Shown here one piece after another: positions 2,891 to 30,851 of a stretch of 64,000 bases of DNA; position 1 is the first letter of the stretch; each line of letters opens with the position of its first letter. The notes beneath the pieces are model-generated. The model saw only the letters and a list, made by a program, of their open reading frames with translations, made no database searches and was not told the DNA's origin. Made by a program: the position numbers and the translations under genes. Location of the stretch: the NCBI GenBank assembly GCA_019135865.1, contig JAGVVD010000043.1:8340-72339 (forward strand), written 5' to 3'. This DNA is from Elusimicrobiota bacterium (lineage in GTDB: Bacteria; Elusimicrobiota; Elusimicrobia; Elusimicrobiales; UBA9959).

Positions 2891-3091
2891 GGCTTTCCGG
2901 GCGGGGATGCGGCGAGGAACATGCGGAGCTTTTTCCCGAGCGGAATGAGGGTACCGGCACTGCCGGACGACCAAGAATGTCTGAGGCCCGAGGCGCTATG
3001 CGCCCGGGCCGAGTTCTTGGTCGGCCGAATGAAGCGAAGGTGTATCCCGGAAAAAGCGAACCGTGACGAGCGCATCCCCGCCCGGGAAGCC
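2891..3091. repeat. Structured palindromic repeat, family B, copy B1
   Basis: The outer arm ggctttccgggcggggatgcg pairs with cgcatccccgcccgggaagcc. The conserved core accggcactgccggacgaccaagaatgtctgaggcccgaggcgctatgcgcccgggccgagttcttggtcggcc is shared with the copies at about 17.2 kb and 30.7 kb. Confidence 0.8.
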
Positions 3092-17086: not shown

Positions 17087-17357
17087 CTGGGGGCGGCTGT
17101 CCCCCTATGGGGACGCTTGATAGGCAGGGCTCCCTCGGCGGGCCTTCCGGAGCCACATGAGGAGCCGTCGCCCCGAGCGGAGCGCGGGCACCGGCACTGC
17201 CGGACGACCGAGAATGTCTGAGCCCGGAGCGCTATGCGCGATGGGCGAGTTCTCGGTCGGCCGCGCGCAGCAAAGGGTGGGTTCAGCGACGGCGAACCGT
17301 GGCGGAGCGAAGGCACGGCGAGGGAGCCCCTGCGGGTCCCCGGAATATTTCTCCTTA
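17087..17357. repeat. Family B repeat copy B2, preceded by a remnant of a family A 3' end
   Basis: gggggcggctgtccccctatggggacgcttgatagg mirrors the A-end/B-start junction at 30600-30635. It has the same core, accggcactgccggacgaccgagaatgtctgag...gagttctcggtcggcc. It ends in tctcctta, whose TAA on the minus strand is the stop codon of the DUF1116 gene. Confidence 0.75.
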
Positions 17358-21159: not shown

Positions 21160-21933
21160 TTAGACTTTAGCCTCCTGCCAGGGGAAAGACTTGCGCTCCC
21201 CGATGAAAGGGAAGCGCTCCCTGGTCTTGACCACCAGACCCTTGTCCAGCGGGACCTCGGAAATGAAGATACCCTCGGCCGTGCCGGAATCGATCACGAC
21301 CTTGCCCAGCGGGTCGAAGCACATGGAATTGCCGGAATACTCCAGCTTGCCCTCCACGCCTATGCGGTCCACGCCGGCGCAGTAAGCCTGGTTCTCGACG
21401 GCGCGGGCGCGCAGCAGCGTCGTCCAGTGCTCGGCGCGGCGGGCCGGCCAGGCGGCTATCGCTATGTAGATGTCCACCTCGGGGGCCTTGTTCCAGAACA
21501 GGTAGGGGAAGCGCAGGTCGAAGCAGACGGCCGGCATCACGCGCAGCCCTTCGAGTTCGAAAACGACCTGTTTGTCTCCGGCCTTGTAATGCTTGTCCTC
21601 GCCGCCGAAGGCGTAGAGGTGTATCTTGGAATACTCGTTGACCCTGTCGCCGTGGCGGTTGAGGGTTATGAGCTTGTTATAGCCGCCCTCCACACCTCCG
21701 TAGGAGACATTGATATTGTTCCGCTGCGCCAGGTCCGTGAAGAACTGCCGGTCGGAGTCGTCCAGCTCGGCCGCCGCCGTGTTCATCGTGAACCCGGACA
21801 GGGTCATCTCCGAGAATATGATCCAGTCTATCTCCGATCTGCGCGGATGGTTCTCCAGCAGTTCCGCTATCCGATTCTTGTTCGCCGCTTTGTCTTCCCA
21901 TTTGATGTCGTACTGGCACAGGGCGAGTTTCAT
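21160..21933 (-). CDS. carbon-nitrogen hydrolase family amidase/nitrilase-like enzyme
   Basis: Candidate Glu-Lys-Cys triad contexts (IIFSEMTLSGF, KIHLYAF, AVCFDLRFP). 257 aa. It overlaps the upstream gene by 4 nt and directly abuts the downstream gene. Confidence 0.8.
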   Translation of the reverse strand: MKLALCQYDIKWEDKAANKNRIAELLENHPRRSEIDWIIFSEMTLSGFTMNTAAAELDDSDRQFFTDLAQRNNINVSYGGVEGGYNKLITLNRHGDRVNEYSKIHLYAFGGEDKHYKAGDKQVVFELEGLRVMPAVCFDLRFPYLFWNKAPEVDIYIAIAAWPARRAEHWTTLLRARAVENQAYCAGVDRIGVEGKLEYSGNSMCFDPLGKVVIDSGTAEGIFISEVPLDKGLVVKTRERFPFIGERKSFPWQEAKV

Positions 21934-24338
21934 TTACTTTTGCCTCCGGCGGCCGCGAGCGCGACCTTTTCCTTGGTGACTGGCATCGACTTGATGCGCA
22001 CGCCCAGTGCGTCCGCGACGGCGTTGGCTATCAGCGGCGCGCAGGGGATCATGGTGTGCTCGCCCACGCCGCGCGCGCCGAAAGGCCCGTCCGGCTGGGG
22101 GACTTCCACGATGATGGGGACTATCTGCTCCGGCATGTCCTTGGCCGTAGGCAGCTTGTAGTCCGAGAAGTTGGGATTGAGCAGCCGGCCCTTATCGTCG
22201 TAGCGCATGTCCTCGTAGAGCACGGTGGCGAAGCCCTGCAGCAGGCCGCCGACTATCTGACCTTTGACGAGGTCGGGGTTTATCGCCTTGCCGCAGTCCA
22301 CGGCCAGCGCGACCTTCTTGATCTTCATCTTGCCGGTCTCGCGGTCCACTTCCAGTATCACGCCGGCGGCGCCGGTGGTGTAGTGGACATTGGGATGGCC
22401 GCCCTGGCCGGTCTCGGGGTCGCTGATGGCCGAGGCGAACTCGGGCATGAAAACGCCGGAGCCCATGATGGGACCGCCCTTGAAGGTGTGGTCGTCGGCC
22501 TGTATGCCGTTTATGACGAAGTCCCTGTAGGGCAGGCGGAAATGCGGCTTGGTGCGGCAGCGCACGCACTCGTCCTCGAGGTAGAGCGTGCTCTTGTCGA
22601 GGCAGTGCACGCGCTGCACCAGGTCGAAGATGCGCTCCCGCGCCTCCATAGCCGCGCGCTTGACGGCGTTGCCGCAGCCCCAGGTCACGTGCGAGCCGAC
22701 GGTCTGCCACTCATAGGGGTTTCGGTCGGTGTCGGGAGTCTCGACGCGTATGCGGGTGACCGGCATCGCCAGCACTTCGCCGGCGACCTGCGCCATGACG
22801 GTCAGCAGGCCCTGGCCCATGTCCATGCCCGAGACCAGTATGTTGACGCTGCCGTCCTCGTTGAACTTGAGGAACGCGCTGGAACTGGCGTTGGGCGGCA
22901 TGGCGGGGGCTTTCCAGAAGCAGACCAGCGATTTGCCGACGGCCTTGCGCGGATCCTTCGACTTCTCCTTCACGCCCCACCGTATCTCTTTTTCGACCTT
23001 CTCTATGGCCTCGCGTATGCCGGTCGGGTTCATGTGCGCGCCGTAGGGCAGGGTCTCGCCCTCCTTGATGGCGTTGAGCTTGCGGAACTCGACGGGGTCG
23101 ACGCCCAGCTTCTCCGCCATGCGCGTGATATGCGATTCCAGTCCGAAGAGGAACTCGGAATAGCCGAAGCCGCGGTAGGCGCCGCCGGGGGGGAGGTTGG
23201 TGTAGGTGCAGACCGAGTCTATGCTGATATTGTCGACGCGGTAGGGGCCGCTGGCGGAGAGGCCGGCGGCGTTGACGACGTTGGCGCCGTATTCGACGTA
23301 GGCGCCGGCGTCCCAGTAAAGCCTGTAGTCGAGCGCGGTTATCTTGCCGTTCTTCGTCACGCCCAGCTTTATCTTCGTCGTGACGCCCAGGCGCTGGTAG
23401 GTGTTGTAGAACTCCTGCGCGCGGCTCCAGAGCAGCTTGACCGGGCGGCCGGGCACGGCCACGGCCAGCGCGGCGGCGATGATCTCCATCGTGACTCCGG
23501 CCTTCCCGCCGAAGCCGCCGCCGATATAGGTGCTCACCACGCGCACGTCCTTGTGCGCTATGCCGAAGGCCTTGAGGGTCTCGGCGAAGACGTGGCGCTG
23601 GGTGAACGGCGACTGGGACGAGGTCCACATGGTCAGGCGGCCCGAGGCGTCGTAGAGGCCGATGGCCGAGTGGTTCTCTATGGCGCAATGCGCGTAGCGG
23701 GGAACCGTGTAGGTATCCTCCATGACGAGGTCGGCCTGACGGAAGCCTTTCTCCGGGTCGCCCTTGCGTATCTTGCGCCAGTGCGCGATATTGGTGCCCG
23801 GCTTGGGAAAGAACCACGGGACATGGGTGTAGCTCTTGAGGTCGGGGTGGACGAGGGGGGCGCCCTTCTCGAGGGCTTTGACCGGGTCCAGGACGGCCGG
23901 CAGGTCCTCGTACTCGACTTTCACCAGCGCGGCGCCGCGCAGGGCGGTCTTGGCGTCGGTGGCGACGACGGCGGCGACCTGCTCGCCGACGAAACGGACG
24001 CGGTCGTTGGCGAAGATGTAGCGGTCGTTCATGTAGAGGCCGAACTTGTGGACGAAGTTGCGGCCGGTGACGACTTTCACGACGCCTCGCAGTTTCTCTG
24101 CGGCGGAGGTGTCTATGGACTTTATCCTGGCGTGGGCGCGGGGGCTTTCGACCAGCGCCGCGTAGAGGAGGCCGGGGCCGAACTCCAGGTCGTCGGTGTA
24201 CTTGGCGGCGCCGCGTATCTTCTCCCAGCCGTCTATACGCTGCACGCTCTTGCCGACGACCCGCAGTCCGTCGTCCTGCGTGCTCACCTTCGCCTTAACG
24301 CCCTTCTTCGGTTTGGAGATAATCTTGTCCATGTCCAT
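21930..24338 (-). CDS. xanthine dehydrogenase/aldehyde oxidase-family molybdopterin-binding large subunit
   Basis: About 800 aa with the typical a/b-hammerhead and MoCo-binding segments (GGGFGGK, GVGEHTMIP-like C-terminus). The start is set to the ATG after a GAGG RBS. The track uses a GTG 12 nt upstream. Confidence 0.9.
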   Translation of the reverse strand: MDMDKIISKPKKGVKAKVSTQDDGLRVVGKSVQRIDGWEKIRGAAKYTDDLEFGPGLLYAALVESPRAHARIKSIDTSAAEKLRGVVKVVTGRNFVHKFGLYMNDRYIFANDRVRFVGEQVAAVVATDAKTALRGAALVKVEYEDLPAVLDPVKALEKGAPLVHPDLKSYTHVPWFFPKPGTNIAHWRKIRKGDPEKGFRQADLVMEDTYTVPRYAHCAIENHSAIGLYDASGRLTMWTSSQSPFTQRHVFAETLKAFGIAHKDVRVVSTYIGGGFGGKAGVTMEIIAAALAVAVPGRPVKLLWSRAQEFYNTYQRLGVTTKIKLGVTKNGKITALDYRLYWDAGAYVEYGANVVNAAGLSASGPYRVDNISIDSVCTYTNLPPGGAYRGFGYSEFLFGLESHITRMAEKLGVDPVEFRKLNAIKEGETLPYGAHMNPTGIREAIEKVEKEIRWGVKEKSKDPRKAVGKSLVCFWKAPAMPPNASSSAFLKFNEDGSVNILVSGMDMGQGLLTVMAQVAGEVLAMPVTRIRVETPDTDRNPYEWQTVGSHVTWGCGNAVKRAAMEARERIFDLVQRVHCLDKSTLYLEDECVRCRTKPHFRLPYRDFVINGIQADDHTFKGGPIMGSGVFMPEFASAISDPETGQGGHPNVHYTTGAAGVILEVDRETGKMKIKKVALAVDCGKAINPDLVKGQIVGGLLQGFATVLYEDMRYDDKGRLLNPNFSDYKLPTAKDMPEQIVPIIVEVPQPDGPFGARGVGEHTMIPCAPLIANAVADALGVRIKSMPVTKEKVALAAAGGKSK

Positions 24339-24356
24339 ATTTCGCCTCACTCGCTT

Positions 24357-24386
24357 ACTTTAAATCGTCCCTGCCCGCGATGTCAA
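24357..24386 (-). promoter_or_regulatory. Putative promoter for the XDH large-subunit operon at the edge of repeat A2
   Basis: Minus strand reads TTGACA, 18 nt, TAAAGT. The -35 lies 3 nt from the ctattc end of repeat A2, and the predicted leader of about 12 nt contains GAGG. Confidence 0.4.
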
Positions 24387-24389
24387 GAA

Positions 24390-24592
24390 CTATTCGGGGC
24401 CAGCGGCGGTCGCCACGAAAAAACGCGCTCGACACACCGTGCTCGCGCTCCTTCCTCGGCCCTCGCGCTCGTATGCGCCTCCGCATCCTCGGGATGCGAT
24501 TCCACCGGCTAGCTTCGGCGCATACTCCGTAAGCTCAGGCCTTCGGACGGTTTTTCTTAGGCGACCCGCCGCCGCCCCCGACTGTCTCCTCC
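24390..24592. repeat. Structured palindromic repeat, family A, copy A2
   Basis: ctattcgggg...cccccgactgtctcctcc. The copy-specific stem gcggcggtcgcc pairs with ggcgacccgccgc. The internal blocks gattccaccggcta and ctccgtaagc are shared with A3. Confidence 0.8.
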
Positions 24593-24609
24593 GTATTACA
24601 AATCCAGCA

Positions 24610-25230
24610 CTACTCTATTCCCTCAAGGTTGAGCGGGATATTCTCTACTCTTGTTGGATGAATATCCACTAAAATCCCTTTGGCAATTGTCTGGACCCGA
24701 GGATTACGATATGAGTCGGAGGGGGTATAGGAAGCACTCACTTCCCTTACTCTGGCGAGAACCGCAATTTCTGAATTTACGGATTTCTCCATCACAACCC
24801 CGGATTCCTTAAGCAATTTACGAAGCTTTTCCTTTGGATATTGAAGCTCAAAATAAAACCTGTCAGAATAAATCTGACTGCGCCATTCTTTCGCATCGCC
24901 ACCGCGCAATACAACCAAGCAATGGGTTTCGCTGTGAATCGATATATCAGCGATTTTGCCAATTATCAGAATAGGGGACTCCGACAGCAACACCCTTTCC
25001 AGTTCAATGGTCGGGGGGGTCCGACCTAGTCCATCTAACCAGTTCAGCCTGGCACCTGCTCGTGAAGCCCAATCTATCACCAACTTCTGAGACAATTTTT
25101 CTATCTCCCTCGCCTCAAGTGCCGTTTGTTTGCCTTTCAGAGAAAGAACATACCACTCTCTCCCCAAAAAGGCCACAATTCCAAGAATAATGACCACCCA
25201 AATAACCTTACTTGCCTTCATTTGATACAT
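24610..25230 (-). CDS. hypothetical TM-anchored protein, third gene of the cyclase cassette
   Basis: 206 aa with an AAGGA RBS. One N-terminal helix (VIWVVIILGIVAFLG) and then a soluble region of about 170 aa with no motif I recognise. About 40% G+C. Confidence 0.6.
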   Translation of the reverse strand: MYQMKASKVIWVVIILGIVAFLGREWYVLSLKGKQTALEAREIEKLSQKLVIDWASRAGARLNWLDGLGRTPPTIELERVLLSESPILIIGKIADISIHSETHCLVVLRGGDAKEWRSQIYSDRFYFELQYPKEKLRKLLKESGVVMEKSVNSEIAVLARVREVSASYTPSDSYRNPRVQTIAKGILVDIHPTRVENIPLNLEGIE

Positions 25231-25247
25231 CCGTATTCCTTACCCAC

Positions 25248-25889
25248 TTATTCCATGAGCTCAATCTCTAAAAAAGGGATTTCTAGTCTCACACACTTAT
25301 AGTCGCGTCCACCATTTATATTCCGCAACGTATATTTTTCTCGTTTTGGGAGCCACTGTTTGGCATTTGCTTTGCAAAAAATCATCTCATACGCCGCACC
25401 TGACATTAGGACTTGATTCTGCGGGCGCGTTACGTTATGCTTAACCAGTTCCTGCAAACGACAGGCAATATTTATTGGTCTTCCCACAAACTCGACTCGC
25501 CCCATCATCACAATCTTACGGAGAAATCCAGAGTCAACACCACAGGTGATTCCTAGGACCGCTGGTTGACTTTCCAACGACGGAAGGACCTTAATTTTAA
25601 GGGTTTCATCAACAAATTCAGCAAGTTTTGGAATAAATCCCCTAAGCTCTGCGCCAGCATCCGCAGCAAATAGCAGGATCCACCCGTCTCCCAAAAACTT
25701 GTACGTCTCGAACCTATACCCCGCTGAAGACTCCAGCAGAAAGTTCTTAATCCGAATGAGAAAGTTATAGTATTGAGCCAACGAGTCGTTCAGCTTCATG
25801 CCCTCCAAAATATTAGAAGAGGAGCATATGTCAAATACCACGACTATCTTTCTCGCCACCTTTTGCTCTGGACGACGCTGGATTTTCAT
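25248..25889 (-). CDS. stand-alone class III nucleotidyl (adenylate/guanylate-type) cyclase domain protein
   Basis: 213 aa. VVFDICSSS carries the first metal Asp. YKFLGDGWILLF carries a Lys and the second metal Asp. GVDSGFL...VEFVGRPINIACRLQ carries the Asn/Arg transition-state pair. No sensor or regulatory domain. Confidence 0.75.
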   Translation of the reverse strand: MKIQRRPEQKVARKIVVVFDICSSSNILEGMKLNDSLAQYYNFLIRIKNFLLESSAGYRFETYKFLGDGWILLFAADAGAELRGFIPKLAEFVDETLKIKVLPSLESQPAVLGITCGVDSGFLRKIVMMGRVEFVGRPINIACRLQELVKHNVTRPQNQVLMSGAAYEMIFCKANAKQWLPKREKYTLRNINGGRDYKCVRLEIPFLEIELME

Positions 25890-25894
25890 AGAGA

Positions 25895-26218
25895 TTAAAC
25901 CTTACGCTTTAAGATTCCCTCATCTTCCAATCGCAGCTTAGCTACAACATGCTGCTTTAACAATTGCAGAACAAGTCCAACCCCAAGAAAGAGCAAAACC
26001 CCTCCAGTTAGGACGGCCCACAATATGAGTGGGGAGAATATCACCCATTCATTGCCTTTGGTTAACCGTTCAAACCAAGGCTTCTCTCCCAAGTACAGAA
26101 CAAGTGGAATCATTGGAACCATCTGCAAGAACGCAAAATGAGTTATAAAATCAACAACCTTCTCATGCCTTTTACCAAAAGCGTAATATTTATCTGCCAA
26201 TGTAACAATCAGTCGCAC
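25895..26218 (-). CDS. hypothetical small integral membrane protein, first gene of the cyclase cassette
   Basis: 107 aa with a GTG start 4 nt after AAGGGGA. Two to three hydrophobic helices (FITHFAFLQMVPMIPLVLYL; VIFSPLILWAVLTGGVLLFLGVGLVLQLL). A 5-nt gap separates it from the cyclase gene. Confidence 0.55.
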   Translation of the reverse strand: MRLIVTLADKYYAFGKRHEKVVDFITHFAFLQMVPMIPLVLYLGEKPWFERLTKGNEWVIFSPLILWAVLTGGVLLFLGVGLVLQLLKQHVVAKLRLEDEGILKRKV

Positions 26219-26260
26219 AATATCCCCTTAATACCCACCAGCCCCGCGATGCCATGACGC

Positions 26261-26288
26261 ATCGTATCGTCAGGATTAGAGATGCCAA
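26261..26288 (-). promoter_or_regulatory. Putative promoter of the cyclase cassette
   Basis: Minus strand reads TTGGCA, 16 nt, TACGAT, about 40 nt upstream of the GTG start at 26218. Confidence 0.4.
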
Positions 26289-26309
26289 TTCCACATCTCC
26301 ATTTGCCGC

Positions 26310-26603
26310 CTAGCCTTTCGCGTCGAGCAGGTAATTGTTGTTGCGGTTGGCGGCGACGAGTTCGCGGACCTCGTAGTCCTCGAAGCCGTCGGCGATGAAG
26401 GGGTCCTGCTTCGCCATGCCCTCTGCTTCTTCCTGCGACTGGGCGCGCAGGACCACCATGCCGCCTTTGCCGTCCTTGAAAGGGCCGCAGACCACCAGCC
26501 GGCCGTTATCATCGAGCGACCGCAGGTGCTCCACGTGCCGCTGTATCACCGACGGATCGAACTTTTTGCCTTCCTTCATCTTCATCGTTATCACGTATAC
26601 CAT
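26310..26603 (-). CDS. YciI-family protein
   Basis: 97 aa. The pattern HVEHLRSLDDNGRLVVCGPF...GGMVVLRAQSQEEAEGMAKQDPF is typical of the YciI-like fold. Confidence 0.7.
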   Translation of the reverse strand: MVYVITMKMKEGKKFDPSVIQRHVEHLRSLDDNGRLVVCGPFKDGKGGMVVLRAQSQEEAEGMAKQDPFIADGFEDYEVRELVAANRNNNYLLDAKG

Positions 26604-26622
26604 GTCCCCGTCCCCCTTGCGC

Positions 26623-27282
26623 TCAGTCTGCCGAAACTATCTTTTTAAAATCGCCGTTCTCATCGAGGTAATAGACAATAGCGGCTTTCCCCCAAATTAC
26701 CACCTCAAAACCGTCGTTCTTCAACTCGACTTCCTCCAGTTCCGACTCCTCGTTCGGGACCTGGAAACGGCCCTTTTTGCGCAATTGCAGATAAGACCAT
26801 GTACCGATACGCTTGGACTCCGCTTCGGATAACGGAATCCTGGAAAACACCCTGACAGCGTACGAAAGGCCGCGATTCTTGGGATCATAACTGGAAAGTA
26901 GAATGAGTGTCATCGAAAAGTTGCCGTCATCACCTATTAAAACGGAATCCGTCATCCCGTCCCCGTTAAAATCGCCAAATACGGCGGCAGGGGATTGATA
27001 TGTCGTGTAAGGATAATAGCGCCTGATCTCTTCCGGATAGTAAACGGCGGGACGCAATTCAAAATTCTTAGAGTAGGCATGGACAGCCTCATGCATCTTC
27101 GGAGACAGAAACACGGTATGGGTTGAAAATTCTATCCGGCTCCCTTTATCCGGATAAGGGTTTTTCTGAAGCGTTTCTCCGGCAACCGCCAGTGGGACAC
27201 AAAAAAACCACATTACCCCCGCAGCGAAGAACATGCTGTGCTGTTTGACAACGCACAATCTGACCATTCCCACTCGCATCAT
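26623..27282 (-). CDS. hypothetical exported protein with one FG-GAP/VCBS-like motif
   Basis: Signal-peptide-like N-terminus (FFAAGVMWFFCVPLAVAGE) and FGDFNGDGMTDSVLIGDD. The start is trimmed to MMRVG to avoid overlap with the upstream gene. Intermediate G+C. Confidence 0.5.
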   Translation of the reverse strand: MMRVGMVRLCVVKQHSMFFAAGVMWFFCVPLAVAGETLQKNPYPDKGSRIEFSTHTVFLSPKMHEAVHAYSKNFELRPAVYYPEEIRRYYPYTTYQSPAAVFGDFNGDGMTDSVLIGDDGNFSMTLILLSSYDPKNRGLSYAVRVFSRIPLSEAESKRIGTWSYLQLRKKGRFQVPNEESELEEVELKNDGFEVVIWGKAAIVYYLDENGDFKKIVSAD

Positions 27283-27320
27283 TTTCCTTTCACGGTTTCG
27301 ACAATGTCTTCCATTATAAC

Positions 27321-27818
27321 TCACAGTCCCTTCGGCGGCAGTAATTCGAATTCTTCCCGCAGGTCCAGCGCCGCGGCCCATTTACGCATATAGTCAAAAT
27401 CGAGTTTGTCGCCGCTCAGCACGATTATACCCCGGCAGTCGCGCAGTTGCCGCTCGGAGCCGCCCGCCGACTTCATCCAGCGGAGCTTGGAAAGGACGAG
27501 ATCCTCCGGGGCTATCACCCAGACCGGGCCACCGGCAAGCTCCAGCTTTCTGCGGCGGGAAAATTTTTCCTGTTCATATCGGTCTCCGGCATCCAGAACG
27601 GCAAAATCCACCTTAAAAGACGTGGCGTTAAAAATCACGTTGAACATACGTTTTCTGGATACGGCTTCGCGCACGTCATCCTCATCTATATGCGCCTCGT
27701 CCTTGAGAGAGGAAACGAGGCTCTGAATATCAGAGGGGGCTATCTGCACTACGACATCGATATCCGCCGTAGTACGTACCTCGCCCCAGAATGCCACGGC
27801 TGAACCGCCGGTCACCAT
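27321..27818 (-). CDS. putative minimal nucleotidyltransferase (Pol-beta superfamily fold)
   Basis: GGSAVAFWGEVRTTADIDVVV fits the G[SG]-x(9-13)-D-x-D pattern, with a downstream KVDFAV Asp. In-frame upstream codons (ETLSWITAKLERSGLPY) look coding but contain no ATG, GTG or TTG. Confidence 0.5.
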   Translation of the reverse strand: MVTGGSAVAFWGEVRTTADIDVVVQIAPSDIQSLVSSLKDEAHIDEDDVREAVSRKRMFNVIFNATSFKVDFAVLDAGDRYEQEKFSRRRKLELAGGPVWVIAPEDLVLSKLRWMKSAGGSERQLRDCRGIIVLSGDKLDFDYMRKWAAALDLREEFELLPPKGL

Positions 27819-27859
27819 GTACGGCAGCCCCGACCTTTCCAGCTTGGCGGTGATCCAGC

Positions 27860-28063
27860 TCAGTGTTTCAGCGAATAGCTTTTGCGTAACCTTTCCTTGA
27901 CCAGTTCATCCAGTTCCGCCTCGGTAGCGGCGGGGTTATAGTATTTTATGCCGGCGCGCATGGATTCGAACTGCGCGTCCATAAGGTCGGACATCATGGC
28001 GAAACGCTGCTCCGGGGTCTTTCCCCTGAGCAGTTCCAATTGTTTCGCCGAGGCCTTGTCCAT
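27860..28063 (-). CDS. hypothetical small helical protein upstream of the nucleotidyltransferase
   Basis: 67 aa (MDKASAKQLELLRGKTPEQRF...). The start is trimmed from the 141-aa track ORF, whose 5' part overlaps the 2Fe-2S subunit gene. Confidence 0.4.
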   Translation of the reverse strand: MDKASAKQLELLRGKTPEQRFAMMSDLMDAQFESMRAGIKYYNPAATEAELDELVKERLRKSYSLKH

Positions 28064-28068
28064 GACGA

Positions 28069-28539
28069 TTACTTCCCTTTTACCGTCTCTTCGATGGCTT
28101 CCACGATGGGCTCGTAACCTGTGCAGCGGCAGAGATTGCCGGCTATGGCTTCCTTGATCTCGTGCTTGCCCGCCTTCGGGTTCTTCTCGAGCAACTCGGT
28201 GGCCGAAAGTATGATGCCGGGCGCGCAGAAGCCGCACTGGAAGGCGTTCTTCCGGTGGAACTTCTCCTGGAGCTTCCGGGTCCACTTGCGGCTGGTATTG
28301 GCGCCCTCTAGCGTGACCAGTTCCGCGCCATCGGCCTCGACGGCCAGCGCCAGGCAGGAGCGCACGGTGCGGCCGTCCATGATGATGGTGCAGGTGCCGC
28401 AGTCGCCGCGGTCACAGCCGACCTTGGGGCTCTTGATGCCGAGCCGGTCGCGCAGCACGTCGATGAGGACGTCGCTGGGCTCCACCTCTATGGAGACCCG
28501 CTCGCCGTTGAGTTTGAAACTTATCGGGTGTTTTTTCAT
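28069..28539 (-). CDS. (2Fe-2S)-binding small subunit of an XDH/CO-dehydrogenase-family enzyme
   Basis: Cys clusters GCDRGDCGTCT, CGFCAPG and CRCTGY. 156 aa. Confidence 0.92.
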   Translation of the reverse strand: MKKHPISFKLNGERVSIEVEPSDVLIDVLRDRLGIKSPKVGCDRGDCGTCTIIMDGRTVRSCLALAVEADGAELVTLEGANTSRKWTRKLQEKFHRKNAFQCGFCAPGIILSATELLEKNPKAGKHEIKEAIAGNLCRCTGYEPIVEAIEETVKGK

Positions 28540-28546
28540 AAGGACC

Positions 28547-29440
28547 TCAGCAAATATTGCCTTCGCCGTACTTAGGGCCCCGGCCCGAGAGCCGCGAGAC
28601 CGCGGTCTCCAGCGCGCGGCCCAGCATGATCCGCGCCATGTGGGTGCGGTATTCCCTGGACGAGCGGATATCGGTGATGGGGGAGATCTCGCCGGCCAGC
28701 AGCTCGCCGGCCTGCTTAACGGTCTGTTCCGTCACCTTCTTGCCTTTCAGGTACGATTCGGTCTTGAGGGCGCGCGCCGGCACCGGGCCCAGCGCACAGA
28801 AAGCGACGCGGTAGTTGTGGTCGGTGAATACCGCCGCCTCCACGCCGCCCTGCGCCAGATCCTCGCCGTCGTAGCGGGAAAGTTTCATATAGCAGGCGCC
28901 GAACTTCTTCTCCGGCACGGCCATCTCCACCGAGACGACCAGTTCGTCCGGGCCCAGGGCGGTGCGCTTGGGGCCGGTGAACCACTCGTGTATCGAGACC
29001 AGGCGCTCGCCGGCCTGGGAGCGCAACCGCACCACGGCGTCGTGCGCCAGCAGCGGCGGGGCGGAATCCGCCGACGGGACGGCGGAGCAGATATTGCCGG
29101 CCAGCGTGGCGCGGTTGCGTACGCCGGTAGAGGCGACCGTACCGGCGGCCTCCCAGAGGTCGGGGAAGTTCTTCTTCACGGCCGCGGACTCGAGGAGCTC
29201 CGCGAAGGTGACCAGCGCGCCGACGCGCAGGACGCCGTTCTTCAGTGAAAGGCCGGAAAGCTCTTTCAGCGCCTTCACGTCCAGCACGATCTCGGGCTTG
29301 GCGAAGCCTTCCTTGAGATGCACTATCAGGTCGGTCCCGCCGGCCAGCGGCCTGGCCTTCTCCTTGTACATGGCCAGGACCTGCAGGGCCTCGTCCATGT
29401 CGGCCGGCTTCACGTATTCGAACTGCGTCGCTATCGGCAT
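28547..29440 (-). CDS. FAD-binding medium subunit of an XDH/CO-dehydrogenase-family enzyme
   Basis: 297 aa, CoxM-like (PLAGGTDLIVHLK, ATLAGNICSA), directly upstream of the 2Fe-2S subunit gene. Confidence 0.88.
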   Translation of the reverse strand: MPIATQFEYVKPADMDEALQVLAMYKEKARPLAGGTDLIVHLKEGFAKPEIVLDVKALKELSGLSLKNGVLRVGALVTFAELLESAAVKKNFPDLWEAAGTVASTGVRNRATLAGNICSAVPSADSAPPLLAHDAVVRLRSQAGERLVSIHEWFTGPKRTALGPDELVVSVEMAVPEKKFGACYMKLSRYDGEDLAQGGVEAAVFTDHNYRVAFCALGPVPARALKTESYLKGKKVTEQTVKQAGELLAGEISPITDIRSSREYRTHMARIMLGRALETAVSRLSGRGPKYGEGNIC

Positions 29441-30280: not shown

Positions 30281-30407
30281 TTTATCCTCCGTAAAATCCG
30301 TCGCCCGGGAAGCCGTCCGGCCGCCCGCCATTGATATCTTATTAATAGAAATTCTAACAAATGACCGCACCTAAATAAAGCCGTTACAGGCCGTCAAGCA
30401 GGAATAA

Positions 30408-30618
30408 CTATTCCGGGGGCATGGCGTGCCCTCACCTCGCAAAAACAGGGTCGCGCACACCGTGCGCGCCCTTCCCGTTCTCGCCGCTCGCGCTCGTCCG
30501 CGTCTCCGGCCCCGCAGGATAGTGATTCCACCGGCTACCTCCGACGCGGACTCCGTAAGCGAGCGGCTCCGAAGGGTTTTGCTCCGGTGAGGGCACGCCT
30601 CCCCCGGTTGTCTCCTTA
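30408..30618. repeat. Structured palindromic repeat, family A, copy A3
   Basis: ctattccgggggcatggc...cccccggttgtctcctta. The copy-specific stem ggcgtgccctcacc pairs with ggtgagggcacgcc. Confidence 0.8.
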
Positions 30619-30851
30619 TGGGACGCTTAACGGGCAAGGCTTCATCGCCGGGCCTTCCGAAGCCACATCGGAGGCTTTCCCCAAGCGGAGCGAGGGAACC
30701 GGCACTGCCGGACGGGCATGAATGTCTGAGGCCCGAGGCGCTATGCGCCCGGGCCGAGTTCGGCCGAACCCGTGGCGGAGCGAAGGCCCGGCGAGGGAGC
30801 CTGAGGCGTTTTTTGTGTGAGCATCTGCCATGCCCCCGGCATAAGTATTCC
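30619..30851. repeat. Family B repeat copy B3, directly abutting A3
   Basis: Shared start tgggacgctt(a/g)a..ggc and core accggcactgccggacg...atgtctgaggcccgaggcgctatgcgcccgggccgagtt. The right end gccatgcccccggcataagtattcc is an inverted copy of the A3 left end. Confidence 0.8.

Follow-up and report, generated by a model that had tools for sequence, protein, structure and literature searches.

Time and again, cyclic-nucleotide enzymes located in defence islands have proved to belong to immune signalling systems, among them CBASS, Pycsar, Pucsar and Panoptes. A block of three small genes at positions 24593-26309 of a stretch of 64,000 nucleotides (nt) from an Elusimicrobiota bacterium (contig JAGVVD010000043.1, positions 8,340 to 72,339; hereafter the window) raises the question of whether such a system is also encoded there. 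The block encodes a small membrane protein of 107 amino acids (aa), a predicted nucleotide cyclase of 213 aa and a membrane-anchored protein of 206 aa, and an earlier note, made from the sequence alone, had proposed that the three form a Pycsar-like cyclase-effector module. The explanation considered rather likely here is a different one, namely that the 213-aa protein, a member of a divergent and uncharacterised family whose proteins have about 205 aa, is a class III cyclase which lacks a sensor and is competent for catalysis, and that the trio is co-transcribed cargo, not a conserved three-part system.

Identification of the 213-aa protein

Single-sequence searches with the 213-aa protein gave no match in Pfam (even at an E-value of 10), PADLOC, NCBIfam or PHROGs, and a phmmer search against the Protein Data Bank (PDB) returned only noise. 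Two of the profile sets concerned, PF00211 and the Pycsar models of PADLOC, are those by which the earlier note had proposed to check the protein, and neither recognises the single sequence. Among its relatives, 7 of 39 match PF00211 weakly, the best of them (E-value 1.6e-4) with 21.8 bits against a cut-off of 21.9. Since the window protein itself fails this curated model, its cyclase homology is carried instead by the family profile and by structure.

A large protein database yielded 69 homologues, mostly of 202-230 aa; a few members are named 'class 3 adenylate cyclase' by JGI, and one is a hypothetical protein at NCBI. A family alignment and a profile were built on 39 homologues. Eight residues are invariant in this alignment (G67, D68, G69, E133, G136, R137, N140 and R144), and D20, C22-S25 and K64 are kept in at least 90% of the sequences. 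When searched against the PDB, the family profile matched Pseudomonas aeruginosa CyaB (3r5g, E-value 3.7e-6), bPAC and OaPAC (2.5e-4 to 1e-3) and the Pycsar uridylate cyclase 8jsz (0.04). The protein contains the motifs FDI, KFLGDG and VGRPINIACRLQ, which stand at canonical class III positions in the profile alignment. Indeed, in the alignment with bPAC, OaPAC and CyaB, (i) D20 and D68 fall on the metal-binding Asp residues, (ii) N140 and R144 fall on the transition-state pair, (iii) K64 falls on the first specificity Lys and (iv) E133 falls on the second specificity position, which is occupied by Thr in bPAC.

The AlphaFold2 model of the protein has a predicted local distance difference test score (pLDDT) of 94 and a predicted template modelling score (pTM) of 0.90. 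The top 50 Foldseek matches of this model in the PDB are all class III adenylate or guanylate cyclases; the best is CyaC (1wc1, E-value 2.6e-11, TM-scores 0.68/0.73), and CyaB, bPAC and RhGC are among the matches at E-values of about 1e-11. Alignment and model together identify the 213-aa protein as a very divergent, sensor-less class III nucleotide cyclase with the full predicted catalytic set, and the enzyme is probably active. The earlier note had read the class III catalytic set by eye, and its residues are now found at the canonical positions of a real profile alignment; its reading of a conserved purine-specifying Lys, with Glu at the position usually held by Asp, corresponds to K64 and E133, and the lack of a sensory domain that it reported is seen in both the family alignment and the AlphaFold2 model.

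As to the predicted mechanism, the cyclase would work as a head-to-tail homodimer, in which D20 and D68 would hold two Mg or Mn ions, the C22-S25 loop would hold the phosphates, K64 and E133 would read the base, and N140 and R144 would stabilise the transition state, yielding a 3',5'-cyclic nucleoside monophosphate (cNMP) and pyrophosphate. Because the protein has no sensor domain, its output would depend on its expression or on a partner protein. Adenine, giving cAMP, is a first guess for the base, because Glu stands where adenylate cyclases have Asp or Thr.

Longer cyclase variants of 403-458 aa are found at loci L049, L052, L057, L059, L064, L067, L068, L072, L074 and L076 (Acidobacteriota and relatives); in these, a linker rich in Pro and Ala joins the cyclase to a C-terminal domain of about 170 aa that has no Pfam match. 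In a further group, of about 280 aa, the C-terminus is extended by a segment weakly similar to PF11875 (DnaJ-like_C11_C). These fusions might hint at the partner function of the family.

Distribution and genomic context of the cyclase family

The cyclase family was surveyed at 80 genomic loci, all of them in metagenome-assembled genomes (MAGs), and is patchily scattered over about 14 phyla of uncultivated bacteria. No relatives were found in viral contigs, plasmids or phages, and a phage or plasmid origin of the cyclase was rejected on these grounds. Individual homologues lie beside the genes listed in Table 1. PADLOC matches among the adjacent neighbours are one-offs: AbiU, ThsB-like, PDC-S47, PDC-S66, LmuA and methyltransferases. 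The cyclase is thus encountered as a lone gene family, often located in variable, defence-rich or mobile regions. The impression gained from the context of the homologues is that of a conflict-related accessory gene, and it is plausible, though not proven, that the family takes part in host-parasite conflict.

Conservation of the three-gene block

A gene-neighbourhood survey, suggested in the earlier note, indicated that the trio is not conserved. Indeed, (i) phmmer searches with the window proteins across the 80 cyclase loci found a relative of the 206-aa protein at none and a relative of the 107-aa protein at one (locus L001); (ii) the profile of the 206-aa family gave no match at these loci; (iii) all-versus-all BLAST clustering of the open reading frames (ORFs) within 4 kb of the cyclase gave only cyclase-overlapping frames and synteny groups of at most 9 loci; and (iv) no Pfam family occurs more than twice among the adjacent same-strand neighbours (n=90). 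An adjacent small protein with at least two transmembrane (TM) helices is encoded at 5 of the 80 loci, against a background of 3.5%, and a small TM partner conserved family-wide was therefore rejected. The reciprocal survey covered 50 loci of the 206-aa family (48 from a metagenome scan, plus L087 and L088) and found a cyclase-family gene at none of them and no recurrent neighbour; the 206-aa gene is for this reason regarded as independent cargo.

As the trio was encountered at no other locus, an outcome that the earlier note had itself named as refuting, its three-gene Pycsar-like system does not hold. Neither presumed partner has a cNMP-binding or TIR domain. For annotation, the lesson is that the trio should not carry a Pycsar-like label, and that tight spacing alone does not predict a conserved system.

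The 107-aa membrane protein

The 107-aa protein starts with an amphipathic segment, continues with two or three hydrophobic helices and ends in a charged tail. The hydrophobic segments, which begin at residues 21 and 57, agree with the two or three TM helices noted before. No homologues were found in the large protein database, family searches gave only a sub-threshold match to DUF7544, and single-sequence searches of PADLOC, NCBIfam and PHROGs with the 107-aa and 206-aa proteins gave nothing usable. A homologue of 103 aa (27% identity, E-value 9e-12) is encoded at L001, in the same operon as a cyclase, with an 89-aa ORF standing between the two. A hidden Markov model (HMM) built on the two sequences finds L001 and, marginally, the TM protein of L081, a four-TM protein of 153 aa which is encoded downstream of the cyclase and has weak N-terminal similarity to the 107-aa protein. 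The window, L001 and L081 make up the closest cyclase subclade (the L081 cyclase having 54% identity).

No other neighbour accompanies the cyclase repeatedly, and the 107-aa protein does so only in the closest relatives; it is therefore a candidate partner. As the sole candidate, it would act as a membrane tether or regulator, and a split membrane cyclase formed in effect by the 107-aa and 213-aa proteins, in line with the alternative reading of the earlier note, is possible.

The 206-aa membrane-anchored protein

A word-indexed search with the 206-aa protein found only the protein itself, whereas an exhaustive HMMER search gave 30 relatives of about 200 aa with 23-39% identity, so that its status as an ORFan was rejected. 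The family alignment shows that the members share a hydrophobic helix at the N-terminus, a charged helix and a globular portion that is conserved. In the AlphaFold2 model (pLDDT 86), a long N-terminal helix leads into a barrel of five strands, in which strands 3 and 4 are separated by a helix. The top Foldseek matches of the model in the PDB are all oligonucleotide/oligosaccharide-binding (OB) folds (N-terminal, anticodon-binding domains of aspartyl- and asparaginyl-tRNA synthetases, single-stranded DNA-binding protein (SSB) and MCM; best E-value 2.4e-3), and in a viral library SSB and tRNA_anti-like lipoproteins were matched. Over both libraries, the OB matches have probabilities of up to 1.00 but E-values of 2e-3 or weaker. 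Matches to tRNA_anti-like (PF12869) in Pfam occur in 4 of 31 family members, the best at 0.0062. The protein has in common with PF12869 a predicted OB barrel behind an N-terminal membrane anchor, but differs in that all matches of the family are below the thresholds of the Pfam family.

The single N-terminal TM helix given in the earlier note is seen in both the alignment and the model. The note had also recognised neither a CAP-type cNMP-binding domain nor a TIR motif in either partner, in line with which Pfam finds none and the 206-aa protein is modelled as an OB fold. A cryptic cNMP-binding barrel in this protein was rejected, the Foldseek-compared model being an OB fold and not a CAP-type jelly roll. 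Judged by the model and by the loci surveyed, the 206-aa protein belongs to a membrane-anchored OB-fold family which is independent of the cyclases.

At L088 (345-2010), two further small proteins with membrane anchors, of 212 and 102 aa, are encoded ahead of a relative of the 206-aa protein, whose gene overlaps the second by 4 nt; the three genes may form a small operon for proteins of this type.

Gene block, island and sister genome

The three genes are encoded in the same direction, with gaps of 5 and 17 nt and an AAGG-type Shine-Dalgarno site before every start, so that the layout described in the earlier note is confirmed by the ORF coordinates (Table 1). All three are real genes, with homologues of the 213-aa (n=69), 206-aa (n=30) and 107-aa (n=1, in the sister genome described below) proteins. 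The G+C content of positions 24593-26309 is 44.7% (42.0, 44.5 and 45.4% for the single genes) compared with 64.1% for the whole window, and the G+C content at third codon positions (GC3) is 0.43-0.48 compared with 0.85-0.89 in the flanking host genes. By reason of this low G+C and GC3, the block is clearly foreign DNA. The G+C of 37-40% estimated earlier was too low, although the contrast with the window stays strong. Of the candidate promoter proposed upstream of the 107-aa gene, the hexamers are indeed present, but such sites are no more frequent in the region than by chance (3 observed, 2.9 expected from shuffles).

The trio is housed in an island of about 3.7 kb (24374-28072), which splits a molybdenum-hydroxylase operon. 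The island further contains a YCII-domain gene, a 252-aa ORF, and genes for a DUF6036/AbiEii-like nucleotidyltransferase and an Rv0078B-like antitoxin, which form a probable toxin-antitoxin pair. The true start of the 252-aa ORF is probably internal, because its homologue at L001 (211 aa) begins near the hydrophobic N-terminal stretch.

L001 belongs to an Elusimicrobiaceae MAG (the sister genome), in which the hydroxylase, YCII and 252-aa genes share 89-92% nucleotide identity with the window (blastn). Between these flanks, the slot that contains the trio in the window (Table 1) is filled at L001 by another low-GC cassette, made up of the 103-aa TM protein, the unrelated 89-aa ORF and a 210-aa cyclase with 56% amino-acid identity to the window cyclase; a relative of the 206-aa gene was not found in the L001 cassette. 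The toxin-antitoxin genes occupy a second variable slot, where the sister genome has a different ORF (L001 3158-4411, whose listed reading of 417 aa appears over-extended at the 5' end). Because the cassette slot and the toxin-antitoxin slot both differ between the two genomes, the site is a cargo-exchange or recombination hot-spot in its behaviour. Horizontal acquisition within an operon-splitting insertion, which the earlier note had inferred, is upheld by composition, gene order and the blastn comparison with the sister genome.

A dispersed family of GC-rich intergenic repeats (72-89% identity between copies) is also present; in both genomes, copies border the cassette on its downstream side, and copies also lie upstream of the hydroxylase operon. 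Positions 30637-30657 and 30782-30802 form an inverted repeat of 21 nt. The repeat adjoining the cassette gave no match in Rfam, where a riboswitch or other known RNA was looked for. It could be an element of the repetitive extragenic palindromic (REP) or miniature inverted-repeat transposable element (MITE) type that aids cargo exchange. Furthermore, a promoter-like sequence, TTGACA-18-TAAAGT (24357-24386, minus strand, 10/12 matches), lies directly upstream of the molybdopterin-binding large-subunit gene, and judging from the hexamers it could restore expression of this gene, severed from its operon by the island.

Table 1. Coordinates of the features in the window, predicted key residues of the 213-aa protein, and genes beside individual homologues of the cyclase
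Feature	Position	Strand	Evidence or remark
Small membrane protein, 107 aa	26218..25895	minus	GTG start; ORF and Shine-Dalgarno site
Predicted class III cyclase, 213 aa	25889..25248	minus	ORF, family profile, model
Predicted membrane-anchored OB-fold protein, 206 aa	25230..24610	minus	ORF, distant homologues, model
Promoter-like hexamers TTGGCA-16-TACGAT	26288..26261	minus	9/12 consensus positions; upstream of the 107-aa gene
Variable slot	24374..26305	none	No nucleotide similarity to L001, both flanks 89-92% identical (blastn)
252-aa ORF	26623-27381	minus	Weak FG-GAP-like matches; 61-nt overlap with the nucleotidyltransferase gene
DUF6036/AbiEii-like nucleotidyltransferase and Rv0078B-like antitoxin	27321-27818 and about 27860-28070	minus	Family matches
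Molybdenum hydroxylase, large molybdopterin-binding subunit	21930-24350		Other side of the island
Molybdenum hydroxylase, 2Fe-2S subunit	28069-28539		Operon part separated by the island
Molybdenum hydroxylase, FAD subunit	28547-29440		Operon part separated by the island
Repeat copies, window	24385-24590, 30403-30616, 30605-30762, 17094-17252, 2919-3016		
Repeat copies, L001	767-936 and 6660-6795		
213-aa protein, predicted metal binding	D20, D68		
213-aa protein, predicted phosphate loop	C22-S25		
213-aa protein, predicted base specificity	K64/E133		
213-aa protein, predicted transition-state stabilisation	N140, R144		
213-aa protein, conserved C-terminal motif	L188-R-N190		
Cyclase homologue P0021	also L085 562-3827 and L086 837-4102	same strand	SAVED and CD-NTase (CBASS) pair 40 nt upstream; Cas1 a few kb away
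Cyclase homologue P0027			Neighbours AAA_13, HNH and DDE transposase
Cyclase homologue P0034			Neighbours DUF6602, SLFN_AlbA_2 and HNH genes
Cyclase homologue P0050			Within an element carrying a primase and DNA polymerase A
Cyclase homologue P0017			Adjoins an N6/N4 methyltransferase cluster and IS110

Proposed function and alternative explanations

In the preferred explanation, the gene of the sensor-less cyclase came into this genome with a low-GC cassette, at a recombination hot-spot that lies within the molybdenum-hydroxylase operon, and the three genes are co-transcribed cargo. Several points weigh against this explanation. The base specificity is a guess, and the catalytic activity of the family is deduced from alignment and model. 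The neighbours were detected with a crude ORF picker and at the sensitivity of BLAST and Pfam, so that fast-evolving small partners could escape. The tight spacing of the genes and their common low G+C suggest joint expression, which could reflect function. Furthermore, a small multi-TM protein stands beside the cyclase in all three members of the closest subclade, and a real two-gene module in this subclade is therefore possible; this protein is encoded upstream of the cyclase in the window and at L001 and downstream of it at L081, with only marginal sequence similarity, and the pairing amounts to two independent observations at most, which is suggestive but not proof. It is considered unlikely, though worth stating, that a two-gene conflict module is made up of the subclade cyclase and its small multi-TM protein (about 100-150 aa) and that, more broadly, the solo cyclase is a single-gene immune or guard factor. 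In such a module, a cNMP would gate the TM protein, although the latter lacks a canonical cNMP-binding domain, or else the TM protein would tether and regulate the cyclase; the OB-fold protein, anchored in the membrane, would be an optional component.

It appears doubtful that the cassette is a new type of anti-phage module, made of cyclase and effector, in which infection would trigger cNMP synthesis and the 107-aa and/or 206-aa protein would be a non-canonical effector or receptor with Pycsar-like logic. The cassette does lie in a variable hot-spot near the AbiEii-like/Rv0078B-like pair, homologues of the cyclase lie near CBASS/Cas1, AAA_13/HNH/transposase, SLFN_AlbA_2/DUF6602 and a methyltransferase with IS110, the single PADLOC neighbours named above point in the same direction, and so does the small TM neighbour of the closest subclade (3/3). 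However, none of the three proteins has a PADLOC match, no cNMP-binding or TIR domain is present, the 206-aa protein is modelled as an OB fold whose family never stands beside a cyclase (0/50), and a conserved effector was not found in the 80 loci; in addition, the TM effectors of Pycsar and Pucsar consist of a cNMP-binding domain and three TM helices (10.64898/2026.08.12.744502), for which 107 aa are too short. The solo occurrence of the cyclase gene, for which no conserved partner was found, would also suit a single-gene conflict factor (defence, counter-defence, guard or decoy) which acts alone, for instance via resident host cNMP receptors or altered nucleotide pools, both membrane genes being unrelated cargo. 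The patchy distribution across phyla, the repeated defence-island and mobile-element contexts and the strong divergence of the hot-spot alleles (56% amino-acid identity, against about 90% nucleotide identity in the flanks) are consistent with this idea, which is nevertheless held to be improbable: homologues are absent from the viral contigs, plasmids and phages searched, and the association with defence genes was seen without a control set. Very unlikely, finally, is ordinary physiological cAMP or cGMP signalling by a minimal housekeeping cyclase that happens to sit in the island. CyaB and bPAC, which are physiological adenylate cyclases, score better with the profile than the uridylate cyclase 8jsz of Pycsar does, and the JGI naming of some members agrees with such a role, but the foreign composition, the exchange of the allele at this site in the sister genome, the sporadic occurrence and the lack of a sensory domain for physiological regulation all speak against it.

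With the sensor-less cyclase carried as cargo as the preferred explanation, the analysis defines a compact cyclase family which is widely scattered over phyla, largely invisible to Pfam and NCBI annotation, unusual in its predicted Lys/Glu base-reading pair, and without sensor domain or fixed partner. If an immune role is true, its logic would differ from that of the known cyclase-effector pairs; if not, the protein would be no more than a minimal cyclase, of use as a compact enzyme scaffold. The remaining interest lies in a partner-less family of minimal cyclases in variable regions and in the possible two-gene pairing of one subclade.

Comparison with known systems

With the class III cyclases (PF00211; CyaB 3r5g, CyaC 1wc1, bPAC 5mbg), the 213-aa protein shares the predicted fold of the cyclase homology domain with its palm-type beta-alpha-beta-beta-alpha-beta core (Foldseek E-values of about 1e-11, TM-scores 0.65-0.74), the metal Asp pair, the phosphate loop after the first Asp, K-x-x-G-D and the Asn/Arg pair on helix 4. 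It differs from them in its low identity (12-18%), in the absence of any sensor, TM or regulatory domain, and in an invariant Glu at the second specificity position in place of Asp, Thr or Cys. Features specific to the family are C22-S-S-S25, W70, R137 and the C-terminal L-R-N motif. Glu and Lys have been reported at the same two specificity positions in PfPucC, for guanine; the order is reversed in the 213-aa protein (Lys/Glu), which is read, as a guess by analogy, as compatible with adenine.

Pycsar and Pucsar systems consist of a stand-alone cyclase and an effector in which a cNMP-binding domain is fused to TIR or to three TM helices (10.64898/2026.08.12.744502; PMC11224242). The locus resembles them in its cyclase-only protein of about 200 aa, in the adjacent membrane-protein gene and in the foreign, defence-flavoured region. 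However, the neighbours here have no cNMP-binding or TIR domain according to Pfam, the partner is not conserved at the 80 cyclase loci or the 50 loci of the 206-aa family, and the family profile scores far better against CyaB (3.7e-6) than against the uridylate cyclase (0.04). A search of PADLOC-DB v2, Pycsar models included, gave no match for any of the three proteins at E-values up to 1. Membership in Pycsar was rejected, as the cyclase models, the effector domain and a conserved pairing all failed to be found.

The likeness to Panoptes is one of layout only, a minimal nucleotide-synthesising enzyme of the palm type (mCpol) beside a small TM protein. As far as the available description of that system goes, Panoptes makes cyclic di- and tri-nucleotides, which its effectors bind. 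The top 50 Foldseek matches of the 213-aa model include no Cas10 or polymerase-palm structures, and it is on this basis, rather than by direct comparison, that the protein is set apart from mCpol. On the evidence of alignment and model, the 213-aa protein and its relatives are best placed among the class III cyclases, as a divergent orphan clade marked by a predicted Lys/Glu specificity pair, and not with Pycsar.

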